Positions 6,467-54,602 of a stretch of DNA of 64,000 bases are shown here, piece after piece; positions within the stretch are counted from its first letter, which is position 1; each line of letters starts with the position of its first letter. The position numbers were made by a program, and so were the translations under genes. Origin of the DNA: Candidatus Magasanikbacteria bacterium RIFOXYC2_FULL_42_28. GTDB lineage: Bacteria; Patescibacteriota; Patescibacteriia; Magasanikbacterales; GWA2-37-8. The stretch covers positions 11,324 through 75,323 of the forward strand of contig MFQZ01000009.1 in assembly GCA_001784435.1 (NCBI GenBank), in the 5' to 3' direction. The notes under the pieces were generated by a model. It saw only the letters and a list, made by a program, of their open reading frames with translations, made no database searches and had not been told where the DNA came from.

Positions 6467-6580
6467 TGGTGGTTTCGCTCGCCACACAACTTTATCCCAG
6501 AAAGACACTCTTGGCCGTTCGGCCTAGGTTACGCTTTCTGAAATAAAGTTGCGCGTCGAGCTCTATGGTGCATAAAACAA

Positions 6581-25514: not shown

Positions 25515-25515
25515 T

Positions 25516-26280
25516 ATGGACCTTGGCCCGATAAAAATTAGTAAGAAAAACTTACCTTTGATAGTGTCGCTATTATTTTTGTCGGGCCTATGGTTTTTCG
25601 TTACCGAAACTACTCGCATAGTTAATCCTTTATTTTTACCGTCGCCGGTAAAAGTGGCGACTGCCCTTAGCGGATTGATAACCAATGGTTTGAGCGCTGA
25701 TGTATTTGCCACTGTGGGCCGAGTCGCGGCGGCGTTTGTGCTGTCGGTGTCTTTGGCTTTGCCAGTCGCACTTTTGATGTCAGAATCAAAATTCTTTCAG
25801 CGCCTGTTTACTCCTTATCTGGATTTTATTCGCTATATCCCGGTGCCGGTTTTGATTCCTTTGGCAATACTTTTTTTTGGCATCGGTGAAACCGCCAAAA
25901 TTGTTCTACTTTTTGTTGGGACTTTTTTCCAAGTAGCGCTTCAATTTGAAGTTGATTTAGATGATGTTCCGGTGGATTATTTTGATTTGGCGCATTCGCT
26001 TAATTTTTCTTTTTGGCAACGTTTAAAAATGAAATTATTGGCCGCCGCTCCGGAAATGTACAATAATATGCGCATCTCGCTCGGATTAAGTTGGTCGTAT
26101 GTGGTAATAGCGGAGCTTGTGGCCGCACCCACCGGCATTGGGCATATGATCAAAGAGGCGCAAAGATTTTCACTAACCGCTGATGTTTATGTGGGTATAC
26201 TGTTGATGGGGCTGGTTGGTTTTTTGTCGGATTATATTTTTCGGAAAAGTTATTTTAAATTATTTCCTTACAAAAATTAG
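25516..26280 (+). CDS. ABC transporter permease (BPD-transporter fold, SsuC/TauC-like)
   Basis: 254 aa with 6 TM helices and the EAA-like loop region. Confidence 0.7.
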   Translation: MDLGPIKISKKNLPLIVSLLFLSGLWFFVTETTRIVNPLFLPSPVKVATALSGLITNGLSADVFATVGRVAAAFVLSVSLALPVALLMSESKFFQRLFTPYLDFIRYIPVPVLIPLAILFFGIGETAKIVLLFVGTFFQVALQFEVDLDDVPVDYFDLAHSLNFSFWQRLKMKLLAAAPEMYNNMRISLGLSWSYVVIAELVAAPTGIGHMIKEAQRFSLTADVYVGILLMGLVGFLSDYIFRKSYFKLFPYKN

Positions 26281-26282
26281 TT

Positions 26283-27854
26283 ATGAGCGGAATTAGTGTT
26301 CAAAAATTAAATAAAAATTTTGGAGCGAAAAAAGTGTTGGAAGACATTTATTTTGAAGTAGAAAATGGTGAAGTCGTCGCCATCTTAGGTCCGTCTGGTT
26401 GCGGTAAGACGACACTGCTCAAATGTATTTTGGGTTTGGAAAAATCGGACAGTGGAGAAATTTTTGTCGGTTCCACGCGACTGACCGAGTGGTTAAAAGA
26501 TAATCGCATCGCTTATGTTCCCCAAAAGTACGCCAATTTTAATTATTTGACTGTTGCTCAAAATATTTTGGCGGCTCTAAATGGACAAGAATTAAACCTG
26601 GATAGCCTGGTTGAAAGTAGTTTAAAAAATGTCGGATTGGATAAATTTAAAACATCATATCCCGGGCAGCTTTCGGGCGGGATGCAACAGCGGCTGGCTT
26701 TGGCGCGCGCGCTCGCCTCGGGTGCCGGTATTATCGCTTTTGATGAGCCGTTTAGTTCTTTGGATGTGGAGACGCGCCAGCAAATGCAGGAATTAATTTT
26801 AGAATCTCGTTCGGATAATAAGAAAACGATGTTGTTTGTAACGCACGATATTGAAGAAGCGATATTTTTAGCGCGCAAGATCGTGGTGATGGGGACGAAA
26901 CCCGGCGTAGTTAGAGAAATTATTGATGTGCCGTTTAATTATCCCCGCCCATCATCTTTGCGGTTTGATGAAGAGTTCCAAAAAATTCGCCGGGCGCTGT
27001 CATTTATCGTGCGCTCGGAAGGGATTAAGGGTAAACTTTCCGAAGGTGAGCCGATCGTTGGTCGCTCTCATAAAATCGGACTTTATTATTGGCCGGGCAA
27101 TAGCCCATTTTTTTACGCGCAAGAACGCGGTTGGTTTGAAAATGATTTATTACCGGTCGAGTTTATTTCTTTCAGCGATAATCGCCAGAAAATTGATTTT
27201 TGGAAGTCCGGCAAAATTGATATTTTAAATGTTACCATTGATACCGCGCTTAGATTAAAAAAGGAAATACCGGATACGGAAATTATTATGGGTCTTAATA
27301 TTTCTCGTGGTGGCGACGCGCTTATTAGCCGTGATCCGATAAGTTCGGTAAAGGAAATTAAAAATAAACGGGTGGCTTTGGAAAAAGATGAGATCAGCGA
27401 GTTTTTCTTGCGTTATGTCTTGTATAAAAATGGCATGAATTTGGAGGATGTGATAGTGGCGGATATGAAGGGAGATGAAATCGGCGCCGCTTTAATAAGC
27501 GGTCGGGTTGATGCGGCCGTTTTGTGGGAGCCGTGGCTTTCCAAAACATTGGAATTGTCGCGCGCGCATGTTGTCGCAACCAGCCGTGATTTTTCAGTTT
27601 TCGCGGATGTTTTAGTGGCGCGAAAAAGTTTCGCGGAAGAAAATAAAGAAGAGATTCAAAAAATAAAAATGATTTGGCAGAAATCCGTTGACGCTTATTA
27701 TTTAAACAAACAAGATTTTACGCGCGCAGTCGCGCCCGCCGTGGGGCTAAGTGCTCGGGATTTGGCCAGCCAGCTTGAGTTAATTGAATTTTTTGATGGT
27801 GGGACTAAGCGGGTACTGGAAATTGGCGGGGAGATTAAAGACATGATGAGATAA
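26283..27854 (+). CDS. ABC transporter ATP-binding protein fused to a C-terminal NMT1-like substrate-binding domain
   Basis: GPSGCGKTT, LSGGMQQRLALARAL and IIAFDEPFSSLD, followed by a ~270-aa domain (IGLYYWPGNSPFFYAQERGWF...) resembling the periplasmic SBP of the same family. Confidence 0.7.
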   Translation: MSGISVQKLNKNFGAKKVLEDIYFEVENGEVVAILGPSGCGKTTLLKCILGLEKSDSGEIFVGSTRLTEWLKDNRIAYVPQKYANFNYLTVAQNILAALNGQELNLDSLVESSLKNVGLDKFKTSYPGQLSGGMQQRLALARALASGAGIIAFDEPFSSLDVETRQQMQELILESRSDNKKTMLFVTHDIEEAIFLARKIVVMGTKPGVVREIIDVPFNYPRPSSLRFDEEFQKIRRALSFIVRSEGIKGKLSEGEPIVGRSHKIGLYYWPGNSPFFYAQERGWFENDLLPVEFISFSDNRQKIDFWKSGKIDILNVTIDTALRLKKEIPDTEIIMGLNISRGGDALISRDPISSVKEIKNKRVALEKDEISEFFLRYVLYKNGMNLEDVIVADMKGDEIGAALISGRVDAAVLWEPWLSKTLELSRAHVVATSRDFSVFADVLVARKSFAEENKEEIQKIKMIWQKSVDAYYLNKQDFTRAVAPAVGLSARDLASQLELIEFFDGGTKRVLEIGGEIKDMMR

Positions 27855-30835: not shown

Positions 30836-30866
30836 ATCCCGACTAAGTTGGGATGATTTTTTTGTT
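30836..30866. terminator. Hairpin AAAATCATCCCGACTAAGTTGGGATGATTTTTTTG
   Basis: The same CCCGACTAAGTxGGG core as the 15663 terminator and the family 1 internal hairpin. Confidence 0.5.
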
Positions 30867-32080
30867 TAAAGTAATGGGATAAAAAGTTCGTTGGTTTTTT
30901 CGTTGTTGTCAACCCCGTTAAAATATAAACAATAAGTCGCGGAATTCGGGTAGTCCAGCTTAAAAGCAGTGGGCAGGCGGCACTTGCTTTGGTTGGATTT
31001 TATTTCCAAGGCGATATTTTGACCATTGCCGATGTCTAAAATAAAATCCACTTCATTCTGATTTTTATCTCGCCAATATTGAGGTGAATATTTGTTTTTG
31101 ACAAATTGCATGTAGGTGGCGTTTTCCAAGAGTGGGCCGTTATCGGCGCGTTTATCAAAAATTTGAAAATTATTAATAATGTGATTGCGCAAGCCGGTAT
31201 CAAAAAAATAAACTTTTTGATTTTTTACTATTTCTTTTCTTTTGTTATTATAAAATGGGCGGATTAAACTGATGATGTAGGTCTTGCTAAGAAAGTTTAG
31301 GTATTTTTTTAAGGTATGATAGGCGAATTCGGATATTTCCGTCAGTTCTTTATATTCAATTAAATTACCAGTTTGCAGAGCTAGTGCTTTGATTAATTTC
31401 CCTAATTTATAATCATCCACTAACCCCAAAATATCCTTTACATCTCTTAAAAAATAAGTGTTATAAATATTTTTTAGCACTTCCTTTTTTTCGGCCTCTG
31501 TTTTTGATAATATTACCGCCGGGTATCCACCCCAAATCGCGTATTCTTCAAAATATTTTTTTAAAATTATATTTTGCTCGGCAGTCAAAGAATAATTTTT
31601 AGTGTTTTCCCAATCAATTTTATTTTTAGTATAGATACTGCAATATTTAGGGTCGCGACATTGCAAATACTCTTCAAAATTGAATGGCAACATTTCTAAA
31701 ACAAACACTCGGCCGACCAGAAATTTGGCCGCCTTGATAGTAAGATCAAGTGCTGACGAGCCGGAAATAATTATTTTGGTAGGATGTTCGTCGTAGATAT
31801 ATTTTAAAAGCTTTCCGCCGTTTTTAGCATACTGGAATTCATCAATAAAGACATAATCGTTGCCAGCGATGTGGGTACTAATAAATTCTTTGATATTTTT
31901 CTCAAATAAATTAAGCGTGTCTTGATCTTCAAATGTTAAAAATACCGCTTTTTTTAAATCGTTATAAATTTTTTTAATAGTGGTAGTTTTACCGCATTGG
32001 CGGGGGCCAATAAGCGCGATTATTTCCGGTCTTTTTAAATACCCAATAATCTCGGCTTCTATTTTTCGCTTAATATACAT
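30866..32080 (-). CDS. AAA+ ATPase (AAA_14 + DUF4143 type)
   Basis: The Walker A is IALIGPRQCGKTT, the Walker B is YVFIDEFQY, and the C-terminal domain is typical of the COG1373 family. Confidence 0.65.
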   Translation of the reverse strand: MYIKRKIEAEIIGYLKRPEIIALIGPRQCGKTTTIKKIYNDLKKAVFLTFEDQDTLNLFEKNIKEFISTHIAGNDYVFIDEFQYAKNGGKLLKYIYDEHPTKIIISGSSALDLTIKAAKFLVGRVFVLEMLPFNFEEYLQCRDPKYCSIYTKNKIDWENTKNYSLTAEQNIILKKYFEEYAIWGGYPAVILSKTEAEKKEVLKNIYNTYFLRDVKDILGLVDDYKLGKLIKALALQTGNLIEYKELTEISEFAYHTLKKYLNFLSKTYIISLIRPFYNNKRKEIVKNQKVYFFDTGLRNHIINNFQIFDKRADNGPLLENATYMQFVKNKYSPQYWRDKNQNEVDFILDIGNGQNIALEIKSNQSKCRLPTAFKLDYPNSATYCLYFNGVDNNEKTNELFIPLL

Positions 32081-38905: not shown

Positions 38906-38908
38906 ATT

Positions 38909-39046
38909 ATGATTATCTATCTATCCGGCCCCGACACCTTTCGGAGTCGGCAATATTTAAAAGAACAAGTGGAGAAGCTTAAAATTGCCCACTACTACGA
39001 TGGATACGAGAAAATTTTAGAAGATATTTTGGCTAATATATAATAA
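38909..39046 (+). pseudogene. Truncated duplicate of the holA 5' end (45-aa remnant)
   Basis: MIIYLSGPDTFRSRQYLKEQVEKLKIA matches MIIFIHGPDTFRSRQYLKEQVEKFKIA of holA at 43001. The two are ~90% identical at the DNA level over 83 bp, and the copy starts 3 nt after the polA stop. Confidence 0.6.
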
Positions 39047-39120
39047 AAATCGTCCTCTTGACAATTAGTATACTCATAAGGTATAATACTCACGAGTATA
39101 CTAATTAAAGTATCTATCAT

Positions 39121-40536
39121 ATGTCATTTATAAATCGTGAACAAGAGTTAAAAATGCTAAATGAAAAATGGCAATCAAATATCGCTCAGTTTTTTATTAT
39201 TTATGGTAAACGCCGCGTTGGCAAGACTGAGTTGATTAAACAATTTATCAAAGACAAACCAGCGTTATATTTTTTAGCCGATAAGCGCACGACGGCGGAT
39301 CAATTGCGGGAGCTGGGGCAAATAGTGGGAAATTATTTTAAGGATGAAATTCTGATTAGCAATGGTTTTAGTGATTGGTTGGAAGTATTTCTATATTTAA
39401 AAACAAAGACAATCACCGAACCTTTGATTTTGGCGATAGACGAATATCCGTATTTGGTTGAAAATGATAAATCCACCAGTTCGCTTTTTCAAAAGGGTTG
39501 GGATGAATATTTAAAAAATACTAAAATATTTTTGATACTGTCCGGGTCCAGCATCGCCATGATGGAATCGGAAACGCTGAACCAAAGCGCGCCGTTGTTT
39601 GGCAGGCGTACCGGTCAAATTTTGGTTGACCCATTAAATTTTTTGCAATCGCGCCAATTTTTTCCAGAGAAAAATTTTTCTGATTTTTTAAATATCTACA
39701 CTATTACCGGTGGCATGCCGGCGTATTTGAAACAGTTTGAAGAGGGCGCGGGAATGTCCGAAGAGATTAAGAATAAAATTTTTAACAAAACCGCTTTTTT
39801 ATACAACGAAGTGGAGTTTACCCTGAAAGAAGAGTTGCGTGAACCAAAAAATTATTTAGCAATTTTGCGCGCCATTGCACTCGGGAAAAGAAAGTTAAGT
39901 GAAATTGTTAATGAAGTCGGGATGGACACAGCCGCCACCAACAAATATCTTTCGGTGCTTATTAATTTGCGTTTGGCGGAACGGGAGGTGCCGGTAACCG
40001 AGAATAAGCCGGAGAAGTCGCGACGCGGTTTGTATAAAATTTTGGATAATTTTTTTGGATTTTGGTTTCAATATATTTTTCCTTATAAAAGTTATTTGGA
40101 AATGGGCAATTATAATTATGTTTTGGAGAAAATGTTTAGCGGTTTAAAATATAATGATAAGGTTAATTCCGGTTTCAAACTTATTGTCGCGCAAGTTTAT
40201 GAACGCGTCGCGATTGAATTGCTGCCCGCTTGGCAAGATAAAATTTTCTCGTTTGAGCGCGTTGGTCGTTATTGGGACAATAATCAAGAAATTGATGTGG
40301 TGGGGATAAGTTTGCCGGAAAAGAAAATAATTTTCGGTGAGTGTAAGTGGTCCGAAAAACCAGTGGGGACAGATATTTATGAAGAATTAAAAAAGAAAGC
40401 GGAAAAAGTGGAGTGGAATTTGGGCGATAGAAAAGAATTTTATATTTTATTTAGTAAGAGTGGTTTTACCGAGGCAATGATAAAAATAGCGAAGAGCGAA
40501 GGTGTGTTTTTAGTGGAGAAGGATACTATGAAGTAA
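39121..40536 (+). CDS. AAA+ ATPase (archaeal-ATPase/DUF234 type)
   Basis: The Walker A is IIYGKRRVGKTEL and the Walker B LAIDEYPYLV. The C-terminal DUF234-like domain is present. Confidence 0.65.
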   Translation: MSFINREQELKMLNEKWQSNIAQFFIIYGKRRVGKTELIKQFIKDKPALYFLADKRTTADQLRELGQIVGNYFKDEILISNGFSDWLEVFLYLKTKTITEPLILAIDEYPYLVENDKSTSSLFQKGWDEYLKNTKIFLILSGSSIAMMESETLNQSAPLFGRRTGQILVDPLNFLQSRQFFPEKNFSDFLNIYTITGGMPAYLKQFEEGAGMSEEIKNKIFNKTAFLYNEVEFTLKEELREPKNYLAILRAIALGKRKLSEIVNEVGMDTAATNKYLSVLINLRLAEREVPVTENKPEKSRRGLYKILDNFFGFWFQYIFPYKSYLEMGNYNYVLEKMFSGLKYNDKVNSGFKLIVAQVYERVAIELLPAWQDKIFSFERVGRYWDNNQEIDVVGISLPEKKIIFGECKWSEKPVGTDIYEELKKKAEKVEWNLGDRKEFYILFSKSGFTEAMIKIAKSEGVFLVEKDTMK

Positions 40537-40652
40537 AGATAATTATCCAACAAAAAACCAACAGTGATAAGCCGTTGGTTTTTTGTTATCTTCTTGGTAC
40601 CAACAAGAATGGTGCGCACGGGGTGAAGACGGTGCGCGCGTCTGTGGGGTGG

Positions 40653-41195
40653 TCAAAATGCATATGACACCCCGGGTTGAAAGAGCAAGGTCCAGATGCC
40701 GGTGCCGAGCGTGGTGCCCGGGCCGACCACGAGCGCCAGTGACAAGCCGTTGCCGATTTTGACACTGGTGCCGAGTCCGCCACCGATGAAGTGGGAGTGG
40801 GGTGTGTTGTTGTACCAGTAGTTAAACTGGTACACGACCGAGGTGCTCACTCCGACTCGATCGGTGAGCGCGTATGACACTCCGATTCCAGCGCGTGGGG
40901 CAGGACGGAAGGTGTCATTCGGCGTTTTGAAGCCGATGAGGGCGGACACACCGAAGTTATTCGGCAGTTTCCACCCGAGCGACAGGTGGAGCCGGGTGGA
41001 AACCTCGCCTGGGGAGGTCGCACCGTCTTTAAAGACGATGATCATCCCTTCGGCCATCGCCACCGAGACGCTCGGAGTGGTCGGGTTGGGCTCTTCACCG
41101 GCGTTGGCGCACATTGAGATCATCAAAACTCCGATGATGGTTACCAGCCAGATCATTCCACCCGTCAGAAAACAAGTTTTCGCCATCCTATTCAT
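40653..41195 (-). CDS. OmpW/OmpA-like small beta-barrel outer-membrane-type protein (GC-rich, likely foreign)
   Basis: The signal peptide is MNRMAKTCFLTGGMIWLVTIIGVLMISMCANA. Alternating amphipathic beta-strands end in ...FQPGVSYAF (an aromatic beta-signal). GC is ~56% against a ~40% background. Confidence 0.45.
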   Translation of the reverse strand: MNRMAKTCFLTGGMIWLVTIIGVLMISMCANAGEEPNPTTPSVSVAMAEGMIIVFKDGATSPGEVSTRLHLSLGWKLPNNFGVSALIGFKTPNDTFRPAPRAGIGVSYALTDRVGVSTSVVYQFNYWYNNTPHSHFIGGGLGTSVKIGNGLSLALVVGPGTTLGTGIWTLLFQPGVSYAF

Positions 41196-41336
41196 CTCAC
41201 CCTCCTTTTTGTAGAAGAACCTGCCGAGACCATCTCGACTTAGCATTATATCATAAAATAATATACATGTCAAGGGTTATTTGGCTAATATAAGGCAAAA
41301 AGTAGTCAAGTTTGTAATGATTAAACTAAAATTATC

Positions 41337-41365
41337 TTGACTTTTTTGGCTTTGTTTACTATAAT
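41337..41365 (+). promoter_or_regulatory. sigma70 promoter TTGACT-17-TATAAT
   Basis: TTGACT at 41337-41342 and TATAAT at 41360-41365. Confidence 0.5.
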
Positions 41366-41402
41366 ATTATTATCATAAAAATTATGACAGAAGTAATAAA
41401 AT

Positions 41403-42956
41403 ATGATTGAAAATCAATTAAAACAGTTGGGTTTTGGTAAAAATGAAATTAAAATATATTTGGCTTTGTTTGAATTAGGCAAATGTAAGGCGCATGAGGT
41501 AATTGTTCATACTGGTTTGCATCGCAATATTGTGTATCAAGATTTAGAGGATTTAGTTAAGCGGGGGTTGGTGACAAAAACTGAAGTTAAAAATGTTTTT
41601 GAATACAGCGCCAATAATCCCGAGGCATTAGTAGAGGAATTTGAAAACAAAAAAGAAATATCGCAAAAAATCGCCGAACAGTTAAAAGAAAAACAAATTG
41701 AAACACCGCGCGAGGTGGCGGTGTATGAAGGGGTGGATGGTTTGAAAAAAAGCCGAGCCAAAATTTTAAATTATCAATCCGGTGATGAAGTTTTTATTTT
41801 TGGCGCTGATTTAGAACCATCAATGGAAAAAGTAATGCGTAAAATTCACAAAAAACGCGAGGATGCTGGGATTAATATGAAAATTTTATACGACCAAAGC
41901 GCTAACAAATCGGATGTTGCTTGGCGTAATACATTGGAGCATAGTAAAGCAAAATTATTGCCATTTAGTCAAAAGTTTCCAATTTGGTTTGCTGGTATTG
42001 GAGAGCATTTGGAAATTGGTATACCACAACATAACAATCCCTTAATTTTTAATATTCGCAACCAAGAAGCAGTTGATGGTTTTAAAACTTTTTTTGATTA
42101 TTTTTGGAATCAAGAAAGCATAAGTTACCAAGGGATAGATGAAGTAGAGTCGGCCTATAATGAAATTTTGGAAAATTCGAGTAATGACCAGGATGTTGTG
42201 ATTTTTGCAGCTAAGCCAAGCGAGCAGAGAAGTTCTAATTTTAATTTAGAGTGGAATAAGCAATTGCGGAAAAAAGTTAAACGTTTGCGTTTGTTATATT
42301 ATGGCGCAAATGAAATTAATATCAGTAGGGCAAAAGAAATGTTGGACGTGGGCGCAGAAGCAAAAGTGAGTGGCACTAGCCAGTCGCTTCCAATTTCTAC
42401 AATTATTGCTGGTGATGTTGTGTTAACGGTGGTTTGGGATAAAAATCCAGCTTGTTTTAAAATAAAAAATAAAACAGTAGCTGATTCTTTAAAAAATAAT
42501 TTTGAATTATTGTGGAATCAGCAGGTTGGTGTTGAATCTGGCTTAGATCCATTGAAAAATATTATTTATGAAATGTTAGATGAATTAAATTCTGGGGAAG
42601 AGTATTGCGTGCTGGGTGCTTCGTATGGCCATGAGACCGGCGGGGTTCAAGAATTGTATGATAAATTTCATACCGACAGAATTAAAAAAGGTGTAGTGAC
42701 GAAAATGTTAGTTTATCGTGAATCATTTGAGCGGATAAAAAAACGGTTTGAGAGATGTGGTGATCAGTTTGGCAAAGTAAGCCAGTTGAAACAATATGGG
42801 TCTGCGCCGAAAATACCTATGCAAATTAATTTATATAATAACAAGGCATTTATAATTTTTTATGGCGAGGCTCCAACTGTAATTAAATTTAATCGGCCGG
42901 AATTTTTTGCCGGGTTTAAAACTTATTTTGATGAGCTGTGGAGAAAGGGTGGATAA
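41403..42956 (+). CDS. TrmB-family regulator, long form (paralogue of 23576..24310)
   Basis: The N-terminal NEIKIYLALFELGKCKAHEVIVHTGLHRNIVYQDLEDLVKRGLV is TrmB wHTH. A duplicated C-terminal sugar-binding-like domain is present. Confidence 0.55.
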   Translation: MIENQLKQLGFGKNEIKIYLALFELGKCKAHEVIVHTGLHRNIVYQDLEDLVKRGLVTKTEVKNVFEYSANNPEALVEEFENKKEISQKIAEQLKEKQIETPREVAVYEGVDGLKKSRAKILNYQSGDEVFIFGADLEPSMEKVMRKIHKKREDAGINMKILYDQSANKSDVAWRNTLEHSKAKLLPFSQKFPIWFAGIGEHLEIGIPQHNNPLIFNIRNQEAVDGFKTFFDYFWNQESISYQGIDEVESAYNEILENSSNDQDVVIFAAKPSEQRSSNFNLEWNKQLRKKVKRLRLLYYGANEINISRAKEMLDVGAEAKVSGTSQSLPISTIIAGDVVLTVVWDKNPACFKIKNKTVADSLKNNFELLWNQQVGVESGLDPLKNIIYEMLDELNSGEEYCVLGASYGHETGGVQELYDKFHTDRIKKGVVTKMLVYRESFERIKKRFERCGDQFGKVSQLKQYGSAPKIPMQINLYNNKAFIIFYGEAPTVIKFNRPEFFAGFKTYFDELWRKGG

Positions 42957-43000
42957 AGTGTTTTGCATAACATTGGGGAACATATTATAATGAGCTTACT

Positions 43001-43963
43001 ATGATTATATTTATACACGGCCCCGACACCTTTCGGAGCCGGCAATATTTAAAAGAACAAGTGGAGAAATTTAAAATTGCCCGCGATCCACAGGGGTATA
43101 ATGTTGTGTTTGCGGACGCGGTGAGCGACGAGCCGGGGAAAATTTTAGGGGAGATTTCCAGCGCGCCGTTTTTGGCAGATAAGAGAATGATTGTTGTAGA
43201 AAATATTTTGGCATGCAAGGATAAGGATTTTATGGCTACGCTCATTGAAATGGTAAAAAATAATAAAGTGCCGGAAAGTAATGTTGTTTTGTTTTGGCAA
43301 GGCGAAGATAAATCAAAAATAAAAGAAGTGGATGAATTGGATAAATTATTGAAAAAAGAAAAATACGCGAAAGAATTTGATATGTTAACGGGCGCGCAAT
43401 TGTCCGTTTGGATAAAACAGGAATTTGTTAAATCAAAAGCGACTGTCAGTATGCCGGCGTTAAATTTTTTGGCGCAGAACGCGGGTGGTGATATGTGGCG
43501 ATTGTCGTCTTTAATCGCGCAATTGTCGGCCTATGCCACTGGGCGCGAGGTCGGCGTGGAAGGTGTAAAATTATTTTTGGATGAAAAGGTTGATGATAAT
43601 GTTTTTAATATGGTGGAAGCGGTCGTGTCGGGCAATCGTAAGCAGGCGTATAAATTATTAACCGAGCAAAGGCGGTTAGGCGAAGAGGACGGAAAATTAT
43701 TTGGTTTGATATTGTGGCAATTTCGGATTTTGGTGAATTTAAGGTCGTTGTTTGAAACTGAAGATAATTTAACGGCTGATCAAATGGCTAAACAACTTGG
43801 TTTGCATCCGTTTGTCGTGAAAAAGAATTTGGCACTGGTAAAACGAATGAGCTCGGCACGCTTAAAAGAAATTTACGAGATGCTTTTGGATATTGATAAA
43901 AAAATAAAAACCGGGCGGGGGGACTTGGGGTTGTTGGTTGATGTGCTGGTGGGACGCTTATGA
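43001..43963 (+). CDS. holA: DNA polymerase III delta subunit
   Basis: 320 aa with the HolA N-terminal fold IFIHGPDTF...FLADKRMIVVEN and a C-terminal helical domain. Confidence 0.75.
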   Translation: MIIFIHGPDTFRSRQYLKEQVEKFKIARDPQGYNVVFADAVSDEPGKILGEISSAPFLADKRMIVVENILACKDKDFMATLIEMVKNNKVPESNVVLFWQGEDKSKIKEVDELDKLLKKEKYAKEFDMLTGAQLSVWIKQEFVKSKATVSMPALNFLAQNAGGDMWRLSSLIAQLSAYATGREVGVEGVKLFLDEKVDDNVFNMVEAVVSGNRKQAYKLLTEQRRLGEEDGKLFGLILWQFRILVNLRSLFETEDNLTADQMAKQLGLHPFVVKKNLALVKRMSSARLKEIYEMLLDIDKKIKTGRGDLGLLVDVLVGRL

Positions 43964-47533: not shown

Positions 47534-49837
47534 ATGTTTCAGAAACAGTTGGCAAAATTTTTTGAGTTTGGGTCGTATATTTTATTGTTGTTATCAGTAT
47601 TGTTGGTGCCGATGGCCATTGATAACCAGCTGGTGAATTCGTATATCATACCAAAACAGTATGTATTAGGGGGATTGGTTTTGCTCGCGGCATTATTTTG
47701 GGCGGCGCGGGCGGTAGTAACTAAAAAGGTTTCTTATATTCAATCATTTGCCGACAAGCCCTTGATTTTATTTCTGTTAGTCGCTTTACTCACGGCAATT
47801 TTTTCTGCCAATCGTAGCAGTTCGTTTTTAGGAGTGGCTGATTATTATATTTTGAGTTTTGCGTCTTTTGTGGTTTCGGTGCTTTTTTATTTTTTAATTG
47901 TTAATCATTTCACCACGGCCAAACGTTGGCGTCTCGGCGTTGATTTGACGGTATTAGTTGGTGGTGTTTCGGCAACGTTATTTTTATTGCGCACTGTTTT
48001 TAATTTTGATGTTTTGTCTAAGTTGGGGATCTCGGCCTGGAATCTGATTGACCCAACTAACACCGCGTTTGGAATTTGGCTCGTTGCTATTTTTATGCTT
48101 TCGGCCGGTCAATTAATCAAGAAAAATTGTCCGGTCGGTCGGTCGTTGTTTAATTTTTTTGTGGCTTTGCTCGCGGTGGCGTGTCTCTTAACTTTAGGGT
48201 TTGATGTTTTGTGGTGGGTGTTGTTGATTGGTTTAGCGTTGCTGTTATTGTTAGGTGTAACATTTTTGCGTGAAGCGCGTTTGGGGTGGTTGACGGTTTT
48301 GTTTGCTCTGCTTGTTACCGATATAATTTTTATCACTTTTAATTCGCCTAAAGTTTTACAGACCAGCGTGCCGGTAGAAGTGGCGCTGGGCGCGCGACCA
48401 TCTTGGGATGTTACCAGCGCGACGCTTGGAGGCGGGGTAAAGAGTTTTCTTTTGGGTTCCGGTTTGGGTACTTTTGGCGTGGATTTTTCTCGTTATCGCA
48501 GTGTGGATTTTAACAACGACCCAGTCGCGTGGTCATTGCGTTTTAATCAACCGTTTAATACTTTATTGGCATTTTTGTCAGAGGGCGGGTTGTTGCTGGC
48601 GTTGGCGTTTGTTTTTGTGGTGGTCTTTTTCTTGGGGCATATTTTGTATGTCTGGCTTGGGCAAAGAGCGGAAGTAATGTTTGGCGGGTTGTCCGGAGAT
48701 TTGGGTTGGAAGTCCGGAGATTTGCGGTTTGAAATATTTTTAGTGTCTTTGGTTTGGGTGCTACTGACTATTTGCACGGGGTTTGCTTTTTTTGGACAAA
48801 GTTTGTGGTGGTTGTGGTGGTTTTTGCTTGGACTTTCCGCCAGCGGTTTGGGTTTTATTTATTCTAAGGCACATAATTTGCGCGAGTGGGAAATAGAAGA
48901 CGCGCCGCAATATAGCTTGTCCTTTTCTTTTATTTTAGTGGTATTGTCAGCCGGGATTGTAATGTCGGGGGTGATTGGGGCGCGAATGTATATGGCGGAA
49001 CGAGCGTACGCGGTCGCGGTTAGAGCCGATGATTTGGATACAGTAGAAATAAATTTAAAAAAGGCGATTAGTTTGCGTGATAATTACAGTGTTTATAATT
49101 TTTATATGGCGCGCTTGTTTTTGTCTCGGGCGGTTGAAGCCAGTAAAAATTCCAATCCAGACCCCGCGGTAATAAGCGCGCTTATGAGTAACGCGGTAAA
49201 TACCGCTCGTCGCGCTACCGATATCGCGCCGGCATCGGTGGGGTTGTGGGAAAATTTAGCCACGATGTATGAAAACGCGGCAGTGATAGTGCCGGAAGCG
49301 CGTGATTGGGCGGTGAAATCTTGGATGAAATGTACTGAATTAGAGCCCACCAACCCGGTCTTGTGGTTGCGACTGGGGAATAATTATTTGGCGAGCGGGA
49401 ATAACGAAGACGCGAAGAAAAGTTTTGAGGAGGCGATAAAATTAAAATCTGATTATGTCGTCGCGAGCATTTCTTTGTCGCAGATTTATGAGACCGAACA
49501 GAATTTTGAAAAGGCGGTTGAAATATACGAAAAAATTATGACCATAGCCGGCAATAACGCGGAGGTGGCTTATAACTATGGTCGTTTGTTGTATAACCGC
49601 AATGCCAAAGGTGATCGCGACGGGGCCGAACAGATTTGGCTAAAAGTGATTGAAGCGCAACCGAATTTCTCCAATGTTTTGTATAGTTTGGGGATGTTGT
49701 ATGAAACGCGTGGCGATAAATATAAAGCGTTAGATTATTATTATCAAGTAAAAGAATTAAATCCGGATAACAAAGATATCACAGCGAAGATTAAATCACT
49801 CGTCGGTGTACCGGTGGCTGAAGTCAATAAAAAATAA
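47534..49837 (+). CDS. O-antigen-ligase-like (Wzy_C) polytopic membrane protein with C-terminal TPR repeats
   Basis: ~12 TM helices with a large periplasmic loop are followed by TPR-like repeats (AEVAYNYGRLLYNRN...VLYSLGMLYETRGDKYKALDYYYQ). Confidence 0.6.
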   Translation: MFQKQLAKFFEFGSYILLLLSVLLVPMAIDNQLVNSYIIPKQYVLGGLVLLAALFWAARAVVTKKVSYIQSFADKPLILFLLVALLTAIFSANRSSSFLGVADYYILSFASFVVSVLFYFLIVNHFTTAKRWRLGVDLTVLVGGVSATLFLLRTVFNFDVLSKLGISAWNLIDPTNTAFGIWLVAIFMLSAGQLIKKNCPVGRSLFNFFVALLAVACLLTLGFDVLWWVLLIGLALLLLLGVTFLREARLGWLTVLFALLVTDIIFITFNSPKVLQTSVPVEVALGARPSWDVTSATLGGGVKSFLLGSGLGTFGVDFSRYRSVDFNNDPVAWSLRFNQPFNTLLAFLSEGGLLLALAFVFVVVFFLGHILYVWLGQRAEVMFGGLSGDLGWKSGDLRFEIFLVSLVWVLLTICTGFAFFGQSLWWLWWFLLGLSASGLGFIYSKAHNLREWEIEDAPQYSLSFSFILVVLSAGIVMSGVIGARMYMAERAYAVAVRADDLDTVEINLKKAISLRDNYSVYNFYMARLFLSRAVEASKNSNPDPAVISALMSNAVNTARRATDIAPASVGLWENLATMYENAAVIVPEARDWAVKSWMKCTELEPTNPVLWLRLGNNYLASGNNEDAKKSFEEAIKLKSDYVVASISLSQIYETEQNFEKAVEIYEKIMTIAGNNAEVAYNYGRLLYNRNAKGDRDGAEQIWLKVIEAQPNFSNVLYSLGMLYETRGDKYKALDYYYQVKELNPDNKDITAKIKSLVGVPVAEVNKK

Positions 49838-49850
49838 GCGGAATTAATTT

Positions 49851-50489
49851 ATGCGTAATTTTTTGGCAATAATTTTAATCGCGCTTGGGCTTGTGGTTGA
49901 CCCGGTTATTTTGCGCGCGGCGATGTCGTCCACGGATTATTATATTTACGCGGATGATTTTAGTATGGGCGGTGGTTTGAGTACCGGTGGCGAATATAGT
50001 TTACAAGATACGATTGGTCAATCGCCGGTCGACGCAATTAGTGGTGGTAGTTATGCTTTAAGCGCCGGGTATCAATTTCAAACGCTTGGAACAATCAGCA
50101 TGTCAATTTCCAGTTCGTCGTTGAGTTTGGGGACGTTGTCTGCCACGGGCGCGTCGTCAACAGCCGAGACCACGGTTACGGTTATTACTGATTCTGCCAG
50201 TGGGTATGTTTTATCGGTTTCAGATGTAAGTGGCGAAAGTTTAACGCCGGTGGCCGATGACGCGGTGGATGGTAATGGTGATTCCGAGGAGTATGGGTTG
50301 GCGGTGAGCGGGAGTGACGCGGATTTTGCGACCGATGAACCGGTGGCGACCAGTTTAACATTGGCTTCCAATTCTGAAATAGCCAATGGTAACGCGACCG
50401 TTTTGACTTTTAAGGCAATTCGCGGGGTGTCTTCTACCGCCGATACCTATAGCCAGAGTATTACACTTTCGGCAGTGGCGAATTTTTAA
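49851..50489 (+). CDS. Secreted Ser/Thr-rich hypothetical protein
   Basis: A signal peptide is present, and the sequence is Ser/Thr/Gly-rich with no Cys or Trp. Confidence 0.35.
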   Translation: MRNFLAIILIALGLVVDPVILRAAMSSTDYYIYADDFSMGGGLSTGGEYSLQDTIGQSPVDAISGGSYALSAGYQFQTLGTISMSISSSSLSLGTLSATGASSTAETTVTVITDSASGYVLSVSDVSGESLTPVADDAVDGNGDSEEYGLAVSGSDADFATDEPVATSLTLASNSEIANGNATVLTFKAIRGVSSTADTYSQSITLSAVANF

Positions 50490-50539
50490 TCCCGCTTCGC
50501 CTTTGGCTACGCAGGACAAGTGCCTGATTTAATAGTTTA

Positions 50540-51418
50540 ATGGTCATGAAAAAAATTTTCTTAATTATTTTACTGGGGATTTTGGCACCGACTTTGGGGG
50601 CGCGCGCCTTTTCTTTAAGTCCATTGAAATATATTTTTTCTGTGGAACGTGGTGAAAGCACGGTGATTACAGTAACTCTAAATAATTATGAATCCGGGGT
50701 GATTGCCTTGGAGCCGGCGGTGGTGGGGATGAAAACCGACAAAGCCGGTCGGCCGGTTTATGATAGCACAGCCGAGGTAATTGGTTGGGTAAAGTCGGAT
50801 TGGAATTTTATAAATTTAAAAGAAGGCCAAGGCCAAAAAGTTCATTTTTTAGTTACCGTTCCAGCTGGCGCGTATCCGGGTGATTATTATTTAGGTGTCG
50901 GCGCGAAACGCGTTGCCGGTGTCGGCGCGGTAAGTATCGGTGAGCAACTTTTGACAGTAGTGAATTTGAAAGTGGCTGGAACTGCGCGCGAGGATTTGGT
51001 GGTGAAAAAATTTGAAGTTAGTGGAAAATTTTTTGAAAAAAATAAAAAATTTAATTTGGAAATTGAAAATAAAGGCAATGTGGAAATGCCGATAAGCGCG
51101 GTTTTAAAAATAAGCGATTGGCGTGGGCGGATAATTTTGGAACAGCCGGTTGCGGTGGGAAATAAAATTTTGCCATTAGCATCGCGAGTAGCATCAACCG
51201 ATTTTGTCATTGCGAGGAGCGAAGCGACGCGGCAATCTATCGTGCCGGGTTTGTATCAAGTGGATTTAACAGTTGATTACGGTTTGACTAAACAAAAAAT
51301 TACCGCGGTGGAAAATTTTTGGTATGTGCCAACTTGGACGTTGGGTGTGTTGGTGGGGGTGATTATATTGGTGGGATTAATTATTTTTATTAAAAATAGG
51401 AAAAATTTTGGGTATTAA
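50540..51418 (+). CDS. DUF916/DUF3324-like cell-surface protein with a C-terminal TM anchor
   Basis: A signal peptide is followed by FSLSPLKYIFSVERGESTVITVTLNNYESGVIALEPAV (a DUF916-like start). The C-terminal TM ends in the basic tail KNRKNFGY. Confidence 0.4.
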   Translation: MVMKKIFLIILLGILAPTLGARAFSLSPLKYIFSVERGESTVITVTLNNYESGVIALEPAVVGMKTDKAGRPVYDSTAEVIGWVKSDWNFINLKEGQGQKVHFLVTVPAGAYPGDYYLGVGAKRVAGVGAVSIGEQLLTVVNLKVAGTAREDLVVKKFEVSGKFFEKNKKFNLEIENKGNVEMPISAVLKISDWRGRIILEQPVAVGNKILPLASRVASTDFVIARSEATRQSIVPGLYQVDLTVDYGLTKQKITAVENFWYVPTWTLGVLVGVIILVGLIIFIKNRKNFGY

Positions 51419-51427
51419 ATATTACTC

Positions 51428-54400
51428 ATGTTTAGTCCGAAAAAAATATTTTTTACAATTTTGACAGCAGTGCTGGCGGTTGGTTTATCAACCGCCTCTT
51501 TAGTATTAGCCGAAACGCAAACCGGGGGGTTGACAGTGGGGGTTACTATTGGGAGTGACGCTGTTTGTGGAAATGGCGCGGTTGAAGGCGATGAGGCCTG
51601 TGATGCCGGCAGTAGTAACGGGCTTTGTTCCGCGACTTGTAGTACCAGTTGTACGGTTAAGGCCACGACCGATTGTGGTGGCGGTGGCGATACCGACAAT
51701 TCTCCGACAATTTCCAATGTAACCACTACTCTGATTACGGTTAACAGCGCAACGGTGAGCTGGAACGCGACTGATAACAACGGAATTTCCACCTCCACTT
51801 TTGTTTATGGAATTGATATCAATTATGGCAGTAGTGCGACAATATCAGGTTCCAATCCGTATAGCGTAAATTTATTCGGTTTATCTGCCAACACGGTTTA
51901 TTATTTTCAAATTTCCGTTACTGATACTGGCAGTCATACCGTTGAATCTACTGGCAGTTTTACGACTTTATCAACGGCGGTAGGAGATACCATCCCTCCT
52001 AATATTTTTAATGTTATTGTTTCCCCAATCGGCGTAACTATGGCGACAATTTCATTTGATACCAACGAGTTGACGACAGCGCAAATTAAATTTAGTTCCG
52101 ACTTTTCTTATGCCAGCAGTACGGCCTTGGACGCGGTTTTGGCTACCACACACACAATTTCAGTGCTGGGTTTATGGCCGGATACTACCTATCATTTTCA
52201 AATTATCGCCAATGATGAACCGAATAATACCACCACCACTTTGGATGCTACCTTTACTACTTTGCCGGCGCCGGCCGTGGCCGATGTTGGTCATTTTGAA
52301 TTATCACCGTCATTTGAAGCAATTACTTTAAGTTGGGATTTGCCTGATTCTCCGTATTACGACCATATTATATTAAATCGTCAAGTTACCGGCGATCCGG
52401 CCACATTGGTAGAGTTGCCGGTTGATCCATTGGATAGTTTATTTATCGATTATGGGATTGATTTTAATATCAATTATACCTATACGATTTATGTCGTAGA
52501 TATTTTTGACCAACAAAGCCAAGGGGTATCGGTAAATGGCGAAGTTTTAGCATTTGGTTTAGAGGATTGTGATAACGGTGATGTTGACGATGATGGCGAT
52601 GGTGATGCTGATTGTGGTGATTTAGACTCTTGTTTCTCCCACCCCCACTGTGTAATTGAGGAAGTGTGTCATGATGAAAATGGTGATGGCTTGGAAAATT
52701 GTGATGATCCGAGTTGCGCTGGCAATGCGGTATGTTTAGCATTACACGAAGATGAGATTTGCGGTAACTTGTTTAATGATAACGGCGATGATTTTGAAAG
52801 TGATTGCGAAGACCCTGACTGTGCCGGATTCCCCGACCCGCAATGTGTCCTTTTTGATGTCGTGGCTTGTTCGGACCAGCAAGACAACGATGGCGACGGC
52901 CAAATTGATTTTGGCAATGACACCGGTTGCGTGAGCGCTGGTGATAATGACGAAAGTGACGACACGGTGCCGAGTTTTTTACAGTTGAATGTTAATGATA
53001 TTAAATTTTTTGCCGGTAATCGTCAAATTCCTTTGGCGCCGGTTAATGAAGTGGTGAGCAGTTTGGCTGGTAGTAACTTTACTGTGGCGGTCGCGCCGGC
53101 AATTACTCCCCAGGCAGTTACCTTGGTTTTGGAAGGGGCCACTTATCAGTTTGGCTTTAATGCGGTGGATAATATTTATTATTCAGATTTTACTTTGCCA
53201 TTTGTTGGTGTGCATAGCGCTTATTTAAATATTGATTATGGCAATGGCCAACAGGATAGCGTATTGATTAAAATAAATTGTTTGCCTTGGGGGCAAGTGG
53301 AAAGTGGTGGTGAGCTAATTGCGGGCGTGGAAATGTTTTTGCTTGATACCAATAATGAAAAAATATATTTGGGTGAATACGGTCAAACTAATCCGGTTTT
53401 GACGAGCGCGAGCGGGTTATATGGCTGGTCGGTATTGCCTGGTCACTACCTCGTGCGCGCAAACAAGGAGGGATTTTATGAACGGACTGTTCAAATTTAT
53501 GAGGTAAAAAATAATTCCATTAACGCGAATATTGATTTAATTAAAATGCCGACTAATTGGTTAGGGGCCATAGACGCGGCGCGGGGGTTGGCTCTACAAG
53601 CGGTAAATGATGTTGCCGATAATCCGGCAGTGGAGCAAGTCGCCCAGCAGGTAGTGGCGCCGGTGGCAGTAGGGGTGTCAGCGGTGGGGACGATTTTGGT
53701 GGTGCCGTGGTGGAATTTGTTGGCGCTGTTACGTTTCTTATTTTTACAACCGCTTTTACTTATCGGTCGGGGCAAACGCAAACAGTGGGGCATGGTTTAT
53801 AATTCTTTGAGCAAAATGCCAATTGATTTGGCAATCGTGCGTTTGTTTGACGCGACCACCGGCAAATTGTTGCGTTCGCGTGTTACCGACGAACACGGTC
53901 GTTATGCGTTTATTATGCCACCAGGCAAATATCGTCTGCAAGTGGTAAAAATGAATATGACTTTTCCCTCCGTGTTGTTAGCCGGTATTACGCACGACGG
54001 CAATCGGCCGGATATTTATCATGGTGAAGAAATTATTGTTAATGAAAAAAATGTTTTGATTACGGCCAATGTCCCGCTTGATCCGTCCGGAGATGGTAAA
54101 ACGCCGAAACGGATTTTGCGTGAGCGGTTTTGGCGTAAAGTGCAGTCGGGCGTGTCCGGTTTGGGTTTGGTTTTCACTTTGGTCGCGTTATATATTTCAC
54201 CGCGTTGGTATATGTGGGTTTTGGCCGGGGCGCATATTGGTTTGATGTTGGTATTTAGACGTTTGGCAAAACCAAAAACTGCCAAGGGCTGGGGAATTGT
54301 TTCCGATACTGTCACGAGTAAACCGGTGGGGCGCACGGTGGCGCGTTTGTTTGATACCAAATTTAATAAATTGGTGGCCACCGAAGTTACTGATAAACAC

Positions 54401-54562
54401 GGGCGGTATAACTTTTTGGCCGGTGATAATAAGTATTATGTTACCTATGAGCATGAAAATTACGAGACGACTAAGACCGATGTACTGGATTTAACCGGTA
54501 AAGAAGAGGACGCGATCGCGACAGACGCGAAGTTAAAAAAGAAAGATTTATCCACAGAGTAA
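51428..54562 (+). CDS. Large surface protein with a myxo-type Cys-rich repeat, fibronectin-III-like domains, an Asp/Cys-rich module, CarbopepD_reg-like domains and C-terminal TM segments
   Basis: CGNGAVEGDEACDAGSSNGLCSATCSTSC matches CxxGxxExxExCDxG...C. Three segments resemble Fn3 (VSWNATDNNG.., ISFDTNELTT.., LSWDLPDSPY..). The Asp/Cys module is DCDNGDVDDDGDGDADCGDLDSC. Three DEHGRY/DKHGRY beta-sandwich units are present. Confidence 0.55.
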   Translation: MFSPKKIFFTILTAVLAVGLSTASLVLAETQTGGLTVGVTIGSDAVCGNGAVEGDEACDAGSSNGLCSATCSTSCTVKATTDCGGGGDTDNSPTISNVTTTLITVNSATVSWNATDNNGISTSTFVYGIDINYGSSATISGSNPYSVNLFGLSANTVYYFQISVTDTGSHTVESTGSFTTLSTAVGDTIPPNIFNVIVSPIGVTMATISFDTNELTTAQIKFSSDFSYASSTALDAVLATTHTISVLGLWPDTTYHFQIIANDEPNNTTTTLDATFTTLPAPAVADVGHFELSPSFEAITLSWDLPDSPYYDHIILNRQVTGDPATLVELPVDPLDSLFIDYGIDFNINYTYTIYVVDIFDQQSQGVSVNGEVLAFGLEDCDNGDVDDDGDGDADCGDLDSCFSHPHCVIEEVCHDENGDGLENCDDPSCAGNAVCLALHEDEICGNLFNDNGDDFESDCEDPDCAGFPDPQCVLFDVVACSDQQDNDGDGQIDFGNDTGCVSAGDNDESDDTVPSFLQLNVNDIKFFAGNRQIPLAPVNEVVSSLAGSNFTVAVAPAITPQAVTLVLEGATYQFGFNAVDNIYYSDFTLPFVGVHSAYLNIDYGNGQQDSVLIKINCLPWGQVESGGELIAGVEMFLLDTNNEKIYLGEYGQTNPVLTSASGLYGWSVLPGHYLVRANKEGFYERTVQIYEVKNNSINANIDLIKMPTNWLGAIDAARGLALQAVNDVADNPAVEQVAQQVVAPVAVGVSAVGTILVVPWWNLLALLRFLFLQPLLLIGRGKRKQWGMVYNSLSKMPIDLAIVRLFDATTGKLLRSRVTDEHGRYAFIMPPGKYRLQVVKMNMTFPSVLLAGITHDGNRPDIYHGEEIIVNEKNVLITANVPLDPSGDGKTPKRILRERFWRKVQSGVSGLGLVFTLVALYISPRWYMWVLAGAHIGLMLVFRRLAKPKTAKGWGIVSDTVTSKPVGRTVARLFDTKFNKLVATEVTDKHGRYNFLAGDNKYYVTYEHENYETTKTDVLDLTGKEEDAIATDAKLKKKDLSTE

Positions 54563-54602
54563 TTTTATTAAAAATGTGGTATAATATATGGAAGAGAAGT
54601 GA

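Follow-up and report, generated by a model that had tools for sequence, protein, structure and literature searches.

The outer-membrane proteins (OMPs) of the Ail/OmpX/Lom group and NspA (PDB 2n2l, 3qra, 1qj9, 1p4t) consist of a signal peptide followed by a barrel-only chain of about 150 amino acids (aa), in which eight antiparallel strands present a hydrophobic and aromatic outside, enclose a small polar lumen and end in a C-terminal Phe. The eight-stranded barrel fold is shared by the N-terminal transmembrane domain of OmpA (1qjp, 9fzc) and the N-terminal domain of OprF (4rlc), and OmpW (PF03922; PDB 2f1v) is likewise an eight-stranded outer-membrane barrel. Archaeal TrmB sugar-sensing regulators (3qph) carry an N-terminal winged helix-turn-helix (HTH) and are local regulators found beside their target. 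Here we describe a gene for a small protein that is predicted to share all of these barrel features and that adjoins a TrmB-family gene, in a 64,000-nt stretch of DNA from Candidatus Magasanikbacteria bacterium RIFOXYC2_FULL_42_28 (contig MFQZ01000009.1, positions 11,324 to 75,323 of the forward strand), which we call the window. We consider it probable that this gene is native to its lineage and encodes a Sec-exported, membrane-type barrel under TrmB control, that its GC-richness is linked to the slot it occupies, and that the module is exchanged among close relatives.

The interval 40586-41273 comprises the coding sequence of the barrel, extended on one side by 67 nt of 3' untranslated region (UTR) and on the other by 78 nt that hold the promoter and the 5' UTR (Table 1). 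According to the open reading frame (ORF) and the AlphaFold2 (AF2) model, the protein has 180 aa, with a signal peptide in residues 1-32 and eight beta-strands in residues 42-179. The start was placed at ATG 41195, which has AGGAGGG upstream and at which the N-termini of homologues align. The mechanical ORF opens further upstream, at the in-frame TTG 41273 (206 aa), which lies within the promoter, and the start given by NCBI, ATG 41246 (197 aa), likewise falls within the consensus promoter. The signal peptide has an n-region, an h-region and a cut site between ANA and GEE, and residues 9-30 form a helix in the AF2 model; the homologues bear classic signal peptides as well. We rejected a reading as lipoprotein: since the residue ahead of the Cys is Met, there is no lipobox, and the Cys is missing in homologues. 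The arrangement around the gene was recovered independently in the JGI, ENA, Logan and NCBI assemblies, and therefore the gene does not lie on a chimeric contig.

An AF2 run on the sequence alone was unusable (predicted local distance difference test, pLDDT, 40.9), so a run with an alignment of 43 sequences was used instead. The resulting model shows eight antiparallel strands (pLDDT 91.5; predicted template modelling score, pTM, 0.76) that are joined by loops of 2-8 residues and preceded by an N-terminal helix, which corresponds to the signal peptide. In a Foldseek search against the PDB, the best barrel matches of this model were Ail, OmpA-short, a de novo transmembrane barrel, NspA, OmpX and the N-terminal domain of OprF, with E values from 5e-6 (Ail) to 5e-4 and a probability of 1.00, and almost all of the top 50 matches were membrane barrels (probability 1.00). 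Against BFVD, the model matched phage OMP-like barrels. The composition of the strands is two-faced: taken over all family members, 48% of the residues on face A are aliphatic, 21% aromatic and 4% charged, while on face B 55% are Gly/Ala/Ser/Thr, 13% charged and 3% aromatic, with charged residues making up just 10-12% overall. We read a hydrophobic and aromatic face combined with a Gly/Ala/Ser/Thr face and low charge as the pattern of a transmembrane rather than a soluble barrel. The C-terminus reads QPGVSYAF, which we take to agree with the beta-signal consensus of OMPs; 29 of the 43 family members end in an aromatic residue, and 32 of the 43 have one within the last three positions.

Curated families were matched poorly. 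The barrel protein had no significant match in Pfam, where PagL (E 0.04) and DUF2490 (E 0.12) stayed below the cut-off, and none in NCBIfam, and a profile search of the PDB returned only 3dwo (E 0.019). In the family as a whole, weak matches were obtained to PF13505 OMP_b-brl (9/43 members, best 6.8e-5), to DUF2490 (8/43) and to the FadL family, and UniProt automatically labels two members 'Outer membrane protein beta-barrel domain-containing protein'. PagL, the lipid A 3-O-deacylase (PF09411), is also an eight-stranded barrel and the sole Pfam model touched at E 0.04. We rejected the reading as a PagL enzyme, as the match scored 14.5 bits where the cut-off lies at 23, aligned only 33 residues and was shared by no other family member; the PagL catalytic triad could not be identified in the window barrel. 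The protein is thus predicted, with good support, to be an exported OMP-type eight-stranded beta-barrel that is remote from every curated family. In a preliminary description, the gene had been called 'OmpW/OmpA-like'. The transmembrane domain of OmpA is indeed among the nearest folds, but OmpW comes only 30th in the list of matched folds, so that 'OmpW-like' is inaccurate, and no curated OMP family was matched significantly. The features that this description had read from the sequence were all recovered here, namely the signal peptide, the alternating amphipathic strands, the C-terminal aromatic residue (SYAF) and the deviant GC content (55.5% over 40586-41273, 42.5% over the window). It had also supposed a Candidate Phyla Radiation (CPR) host, and Candidatus Magasanikbacteria does belong there, in the Patescibacteria/Parcubacteria group.

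We searched exhaustively for homologues with HMMER among 1.84 billion representative proteins and found 48 orphan-like relatives at E<=1e-3, with 20 at E<=1e-10. A word-index search was far less productive: the single protein retrieved its own cluster alone, and the family alignment as query retrieved four proteins. Bar a few members, the family is 159-189 aa long. The members whose whole sequences were read begin with a signal peptide and have in common the motifs EGY..FKDG..PG..TR, TPNDxFxPAPR, YQxNPxY and QPxxxYxF. All named members are from Magasanikbacteria or the 'Patescibacteria group', and the nearest relatives (46-34% identical) lie on Magasanikbacteria or Patescibacteria contigs. The sole examined relative outside the CPR/TrmB setting, P0049 (loci and proteins of relatives are designated here by L and P numbers), is a distant one (25% identity, E 1.7e-4), encoded between ABC permease and glutathione S-transferase (GST) genes on a 74% GC contig whose host is probably a diderm. 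No relatives were found in the plasmids, phage genomes or viral contigs searched. A reading as phage or plasmid cargo was therefore rejected, the phage OMP-like barrels matching by fold alone. In the literature on Patescibacteria or Magasanikbacteria with beta-barrel or outer-membrane topics, we did not find a family of this kind described.

The genomic contexts of ten further members (P0054, P0007, P0051, P0010, P0014, P0009, P0059, P0024, P0062 and the barrel of L015) revealed a constant partner. All 12 family genes in 11 independent loci (the window included; L010 has two) adjoin a divergent gene of the TrmB family, whose product is mostly 513-520 aa long. The gene order polA-barrel-TrmB-holA is found in six loci (window, L005, L010, L013, L017 and L018). 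Among these polA-holA loci, PolA proteins are 56-69% identical and barrels 22-40%, and the two measures correlate (rho 0.58, p 0.02; the pairs are not independent). Searching GTDB genomes and metagenomes with TrmB as the starting point added the barrel loci L015, L022, L026 and L029. From its conserved position and partner, the barrel gene is best read as a resident of the lineage that is mostly vertically inherited and forms half of a conserved two-gene module. By prediction, the barrel is a lineage-restricted variant of the small OMP barrel inside a conserved, putatively TrmB-controlled module.

Two variations on this arrangement were observed. L010 carries at 6283-6906 (+) a second barrel paralogue, which is 38% identical to the first, GC-rich, and accompanied by its own divergent 520-aa TrmB gene; one gene caller took the opposite strand there (208 aa), which is likely a mis-call from GC-rich, stop-poor sequence. 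Several relatives have an additional short ORF that separates the barrel gene from its conserved promoter (L005 7684-7980, L013 3760-4137, L012 7849-7983, L018 5765-6004, and L015). These ORFs of 36-125 aa are not conserved, and some of them include transmembrane segments; the window has none at this place.

The partner gene of the window encodes a 517-aa protein with an N-terminal winged HTH (PF01978, 3.8e-12, residues 6-74). The TrmB structure 3qph matches over residues 3-99 only (1.4e-4), and a TrmB-type C-terminal sugar-binding domain was not found, the Pfam and PDB matches stopping at residue ~100. Beyond the HTH, the protein consists of three tandem homologous domains of ~138 aa (z 14.4, 11.3 and 6.6), each ending F..F..LW, and this repeat domain has no match in Pfam or the PDB. 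Related loci hold paralogues of about 240, 380, 517 and 922 aa, a range of sizes that suggests a modular family in which the repeat domain is present once, twice, three times or more.

The spacer between the barrel and TrmB genes is 207 nt long and contains two back-to-back promoters, with TTAGCCAAA motifs flanking both -35 boxes. One conserved palindrome follows the TrmB -10 box and precedes the start codon of the TrmB gene, and a second, imperfect one is listed in Table 1. In an alignment of ten loci, the mean column identity of the spacers reaches 60%, with 37 columns invariant, even though barrel identity is no more than 22-46%. The predicted barrel mRNA has a 5' stem-loop, which recalls the stabilising 5' UTR of ompA. 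Based on these features, we propose that the 517-aa TrmB most likely binds the TGTCA/TGACA palindromes between the two promoters and would thereby control its own gene and the barrel gene, either as repressor or as activator, its tandem domains being putative sensors. When switched on, the barrel gene is probably very highly expressed, as the promoter, the Shine-Dalgarno sequence, the 5' stem-loop and the mainly C-ending codons suggest. The product would be exported by the Sec pathway, fold in its mature form of about 148 aa as an eight-stranded membrane-type beta-barrel, and most likely be inserted without the classical beta-barrel assembly machinery (BAM) into a lipid layer, either at the surface of the cell or where symbiont and host meet. 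There it may act as an abundant, fast-evolving surface protein, a role that we propose with low certainty.

A second TrmB paralogue in the window (244 aa, 23576-24310, -) is divergent from a three-gene cluster at 24513-27854 (+), which, read from ORF starts, is a probable ABC-type transporter operon. As this paralogue is also divergently placed, local divergent control appears to be a habit of the TrmB family. In L019, a TrmB paralogue at 9401-10126 is divergent from an NMT1/ABC_tran/BPD_transp_1 operon.

The module lies in an 'islet' (38908-43082), a segment of 4.1 kb that is bounded by an 83-nt direct repeat of 90% identity, whose left copy, a duplicate of the holA 5' end, begins 3 nt past the polA stop codon. 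This duplicate is also present in the sister strain Candidatus Magasanikbacteria bacterium RIFOXYD2_FULL_41_14 (L014), but not in more distant relatives, in which the barrel terminator abuts polA. The ATPase gene of the islet (39121-40536) has its own near-consensus promoter and is not part of the conserved module. Since the ATPase gene and the holA fragment occur in L014 and are absent in distant relatives, they represent a lineage-specific insertion, whereas the barrel-TrmB pair is ancestral. Neither an integrase nor a transposase was found in the islet by the Pfam scan, and no tRNA gene adjoins it, the nearest one being located past polA. Comparison with the sister strain revealed an abrupt change in similarity: positions 41000-43000 of the window are 99-100% identical to L014 4598-6597, but the flanks are only 78-92% identical, with a break exactly at the start of holA. 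The nearly identical tract spans the 5' half of the barrel gene, both promoters and the whole TrmB gene. This jump in identity points to a recent tract of homologous recombination, and thus to exchange of the module among close relatives.

The barrel gene stands out by its composition. GC content is 55.5% in the interval 40586-41273 and 57.8% in the coding sequence, compared with 35.2% in the rest of the islet and 42.5% in the window, and it is here that the highest value for any 543-nt stretch of the 64 kb is reached, at 0.597 (mean 0.425, sd 0.046). With a GC content at third codon positions (GC3) of 0.73, the gene is the sole GC3 outlier among about 50 window ORFs (others 0.28-0.57, neighbours 0.30-0.45). 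We found a GC3 excess in every barrel orthologue examined, in genomes of 31-45% GC. Compared with neighbours or the TrmB gene, barrel GC3 was 0.82 in L009 (0.25-0.29, with one neighbour at 0.53), 0.76 in L010 (0.42-0.54), 0.74 in L029 (0.29), 0.67 in L013 (about 0.4), 0.53 in L012 (0.23) and 0.37 in L005 (about 0.2); compared with the locus median, it was 0.63 in L017 (0.44), 0.60 in L019 (0.44) and 0.53 in L018 (0.33). As all orthologues deviate, composition is not diagnostic of transfer here. Moreover, three TrmB relatives of the three-domain type (L016, L028 and L024) carry other small, exported, beta-rich ORFs in the same divergent slot. Those of L016 (3622-4218, -) and L028 are 36% identical to each other, and that of L024 is a third type; the ORFs of L028 and L024 are each upstream of 3001. 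The GC3 of these slot ORFs is 0.62-0.875, compared with 0.31-0.44 for the partner TrmB genes. Comparison with hhalign gave no homology of the barrel family to the TrmB-partner ORFs of L016 and L028 or to a 227-aa ORF of L019. Since unrelated ORFs in the TrmB slot are equally GC-rich, we conclude that the GC-richness is tied to the regulatory slot rather than to a lineage of genes.

The excess in the window gene is mainly one of C. The share of C is 0.66 at codons ending in a pyrimidine (NNY), compared with 0.16 in background genes, and 0.44 at fourfold sites, compared with 0.21; G is neither increased at fourfold sites nor changed at Lys/Glu/Gln codons. C at NNY codons is the highest of 53 window ORFs (0.74, mean 0.29), and the barrel gene ranks first by this measure in 7 of 10 loci; the genes for S20, trigger factor and H+-PPase are raised as well. 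The consensus promoter, the strong Shine-Dalgarno sequence and the C-ending codons together argue for very high expression of the barrel gene. The predicted transcript of 701 nt folds far below dinucleotide shuffles (z -6.35). Candidate causes of the GC-richness are expression-linked selection on codons or mRNA and GC-biased gene conversion, the latter remaining a candidate because the module recombines. Pure translational selection was set aside as being only partly consistent with the data: C-ending codons dominate in the window gene, but other loci show enrichment of G-ending Lys/Glu/Gln codons too, and the 3' UTR shares in the GC excess. The second-highest C-ending bias in the window (0.57) belongs to a 303-aa ORF at 21124-22035 (-), whose N-terminal part includes a hydrophobic segment; it has no match in Pfam and may encode another highly expressed envelope protein.

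Several observations weigh against the interpretation of this locus as a TrmB-controlled module for an abundant membrane barrel. What is proposed for the barrel's fold, its place in a membrane and its level of expression is all prediction, and the putative control by TrmB is read from conserved adjacency and conserved palindromes. Barrel identity correlates only weakly with TrmB identity (rho 0.17). Several orthologues, like the other partner families, are enriched in G-ending Lys/Glu/Gln codons as well, and the 3' UTR of the barrel gene, which is non-coding, is GC-rich too, so that simple translational selection is not the full explanation. Synonymous-codon shuffles gave a mixed picture of mRNA folding: z was -3.5, -3.95 and -2.6 for three orthologues and +0.8 and -0.15 for two others, and a TrmB control gene also reached -2.9. 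Finally, published work describes CPR bacteria as monoderms that lost their porins (bioRxiv 10.1101/2021.05.31.446380; PMC12102498), and therefore no membrane or assembly machine is known that could receive the barrel. They have been grouped with the monoderm Chloroflexi/Dormibacteraeota clade (bioRxiv 10.1101/2021.05.31.446380), and the cell walls of most of them are undescribed (PMC8871954).

As to where the family came from, an ancient diderm origin, either as a relic of a Terrabacteria/CPR diderm ancestor or through one old transfer, followed by vertical descent and co-option, is possible, although we lean against it. It is compatible with the present state of the module as proposed above and differs on the ultimate origin only. 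Common ancestry with diderm OMPs is suggested by the fold, the beta-signal-like C-terminus and the weak matches to OMP_b-brl, DUF2490 and FadL, and one distant member is on a high-GC, probably diderm contig. However, the family seems to be limited to a part of the Patescibacteria (48 representatives) and does not extend to all CPR, the sequences are too short and divergent for phylogeny, and the reported loss of porins in CPR (10.1101/2021.05.31.446380) argues against it.

The lineage has no known outer membrane (PMC12102498; 10.1101/2021.05.31.446380), and the barrel could instead be a host-directed effector that an episymbiont exports into the membrane of its host, possibly by means of the host BAM, where it would serve as an anchor or small channel. 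The C-terminus of the barrel fits the beta-signal, its putative regulation is tight and potentially ligand-sensing, and the barrel-TrmB module was recently exchanged by recombination; fast evolution, with barrels 22-46% identical where PolA is 56-69% identical, is expected of interface proteins. Nevertheless, we judge this explanation to be unlikely: no delivery system adjoins the barrel gene, the loops are short with no extra-membrane domain, BAM works from the periplasm, to which a symbiont on the outside could hardly gain access, and Magasanikbacteria have no known hosts.

Most CPR bacteria are thought to depend on external lipids. A barrel that is secreted or wall-associated and not embedded in a membrane, binding a hydrophobic ligand for lipid scavenging or oligomerising via its hydrophobic surface, would be in line with this dependence. 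Soluble eight-stranded barrels do exist, and the conserved motifs PNDxFxPAPR, YQxNPxY and KDG cluster in loops at one end of the barrel. What makes such a protein quite improbable in our view is that no soluble barrel is among the top 50 PDB matches, that the Gly/Ala/Ser/Thr polar face and the 10-12% of charged residues are taken here to fit transmembrane barrels, and that the weak sequence matches are all to membrane-barrel families.

The preliminary description had attributed the gene to horizontal acquisition from a diderm, and this was not supported. A recent transfer from a GC-rich diderm, either host or neighbour, that placed the gene in a foreign islet is very improbable, even though the GC content of the barrel gene (58%, 35% in the flanks), its GC3 of 0.73, the 83-nt direct repeat bounding the islet, the diderm-typical fold and the position of the distant relative P0049 beside GST and ABC permease genes on a 74% GC contig could all be read in this way. 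The best hits are within the same lineage and have similar GC contents, and they occupy the same polA-holA site together with the TrmB partner. There is no close non-CPR homologue in the 1.84 billion representatives, the best possible diderm one being 25% identical (E 1.7e-4), while five other lineages hold an orthologue at polA-holA with the same TrmB and cis-elements. Codon usage does identify the gene as an outlier in GC3 and C-ending codons, but the same excess is found in every orthologue, across genomes of 31-45% GC, and in the unrelated partner families, so that it is no sign of transfer; the Lys/Glu/Gln codons of the window barrel retain the A-ending habit of the genome. In addition, the barrel promoter is a conserved element of native type, and the islet has neither an integrase or transposase nor an adjacent tRNA gene.

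That the ORF is an artefact of a GC-rich structured RNA or non-coding element, open merely since GC-rich DNA has few stops, is scarcely credible: long ORFs on both strands of 40586-41273 and the strong predicted folding of the transcript (z -6.35) would fit, but a family of 48 representatives is conserved at the amino-acid level, its alignment yields a confident AF2 model, GC3 is far above GC1 and GC2 as expected from coding periodicity, the Shine-Dalgarno sequence and signal peptide are correctly placed, and the region has no Rfam match. A known RNA was rejected, as Rfam gave nothing above noise (SpF25, E 0.17, over the terminator).

Table 1 Features of the barrel-TrmB locus in the window (positions of the 64,000-nt stretch; a dot marks features given without strand)
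Feature	Position	Strand	Description and evidence
Duplicated holA 5' end	38908..38990	+	Truncated 44-aa ORF; direct repeat, 90% identical to 43000-43082
ATPase_2/DUF234 ATPase gene	39121..40536	+	Pfam; not at this site in L013, L010, L017 and L018
Bidirectional intrinsic-terminator hairpin	40549..40587	.	Inverted repeat and fold; common to the convergent ATPase gene
Barrel 3' UTR	40588..40652	-	GC-rich (43% C); sequence composition
Barrel coding sequence	40653..41195	-	Stop codon included; ORF scan, AF2 model, Foldseek, strand-face composition, GC3
Signal-peptide coding part	41100..41195	-	MNRMAKTCFLTGGMIWLVTIIGVLMISMCANA, then GEE; signal peptidase I AXA type; sequence, model helix 9-30, homologues
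Shine-Dalgarno sequence AGGAGGG	41200..41206	-	Last base 4 nt ahead of ATG
5' stem-loop of predicted barrel mRNA	41223..41239	-	GTCGAGA-TGG-TCTCGGC; fold; counterparts in L009, L012, L015 and L019
Barrel promoter	41245..41273	-	TTGACA, 17 nt, TATAAT; 12/12 consensus; extended -10 TG; conserved across loci
TTAGCCAAA motif	41268..41288	-	Abuts barrel -35; near-invariant columns in 10-locus intergenic alignment
Imperfect palindrome, candidate second operator	41303..41321	.	T(A/G)TCA-N9-10-TGAC(T)A; conserved block
TrmB promoter	41337..41365	+	TTGACT, 17 nt, TATAAT; 11/12 consensus; conserved across loci
Palindrome, candidate autoregulatory operator	41371..41389	.	TGTCAT-N7-ATGA(C/T)A; invariant columns in 10 loci
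TrmB-family regulator gene	41403..42956	+	517 aa; Pfam, PDB profile, internal repeats, adjacency 12/12

Some further features were observed in the window. Just ahead of the terminator, the 3' UTR of the barrel gene forms a hairpin, TTCTTGTTGG-TACC-AAGAAG (40590-40609, -), which is similar in L015 and L010, and the 42 nt preceding this hairpin are very C-rich. Two low-GC ATPase genes of 'archaeal type' are present, namely the one of the islet at 39121-40536 (0.37, ATPase_2/DUF234) and one at 30866-32080 (0.33, AAA_14/DUF4143). Large exported proteins are encoded at 47534-61106: a 767-aa tetratricopeptide-repeat (TPR) protein, two secreted proteins (212 and 292 aa) of no assigned family, a 1044-aa CarboxypepD_reg and fn3 protein and a 2165-aa LVIVD-repeat protein. 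This cluster is probably a cell-surface apparatus.

The wider meaning of these data depends on where the barrel goes. It is a rather doubtful but consequential proposition that some Patescibacteria abundantly make TrmB-controlled OMP-type barrels with a beta-signal even though they have no outer membrane and no BAM. If true, either there is an unrecognised outer lipid layer, or such barrels self-insert or enter the host membrane at the episymbiotic contact; and the GC-richness of the slot gene, which recurs in three unrelated families, would mark a distinct selective or recombinational regime on surface genes. The assumption that CPR are monoderm feeds models of the gain and loss of the second membrane. 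The barrel is a cloneable object with which its destination in such cells, folding without BAM and a role between symbiont and host can be addressed. For genome scans, the locus shows that a sharp spike in GC or GC3 is no proof of foreign origin, since the one seen here is heritable and goes with a regulatory slot.

Compared with the described systems, the barrel of the window is closest to Ail/OmpX/Lom and NspA, which are its best Foldseek matches, with template modelling (TM) scores of 0.5-0.6 (target-normalised), although its sequence identity to them is only 10-17%. Ail and OmpX have long external loops, whereas the loops of the window barrel are all short (2-8 residues). It further differs from these proteins in that its lineage is reportedly without an outer membrane and that its family is invariably paired with a TrmB-type regulator. 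OmpW is a more distant fold match (TM 0.38), and the window barrel has no Pfam match to it. As in OmpA, an internal pair may exist, as the alignment suggests for the conserved E49 and R68 on adjacent strands; unlike full-length OmpA, which has the peptidoglycan-binding OmpA_C domain, the protein stops at strand 8, with no match to PF00691. The regulator, in turn, shares the N-terminal HTH with archaeal TrmB, but this homology ends at residue ~99 of the 517-aa protein and is followed by the three tandem ~138-aa domains, and its candidate target is not a sugar transporter but a single gene for an exported barrel.

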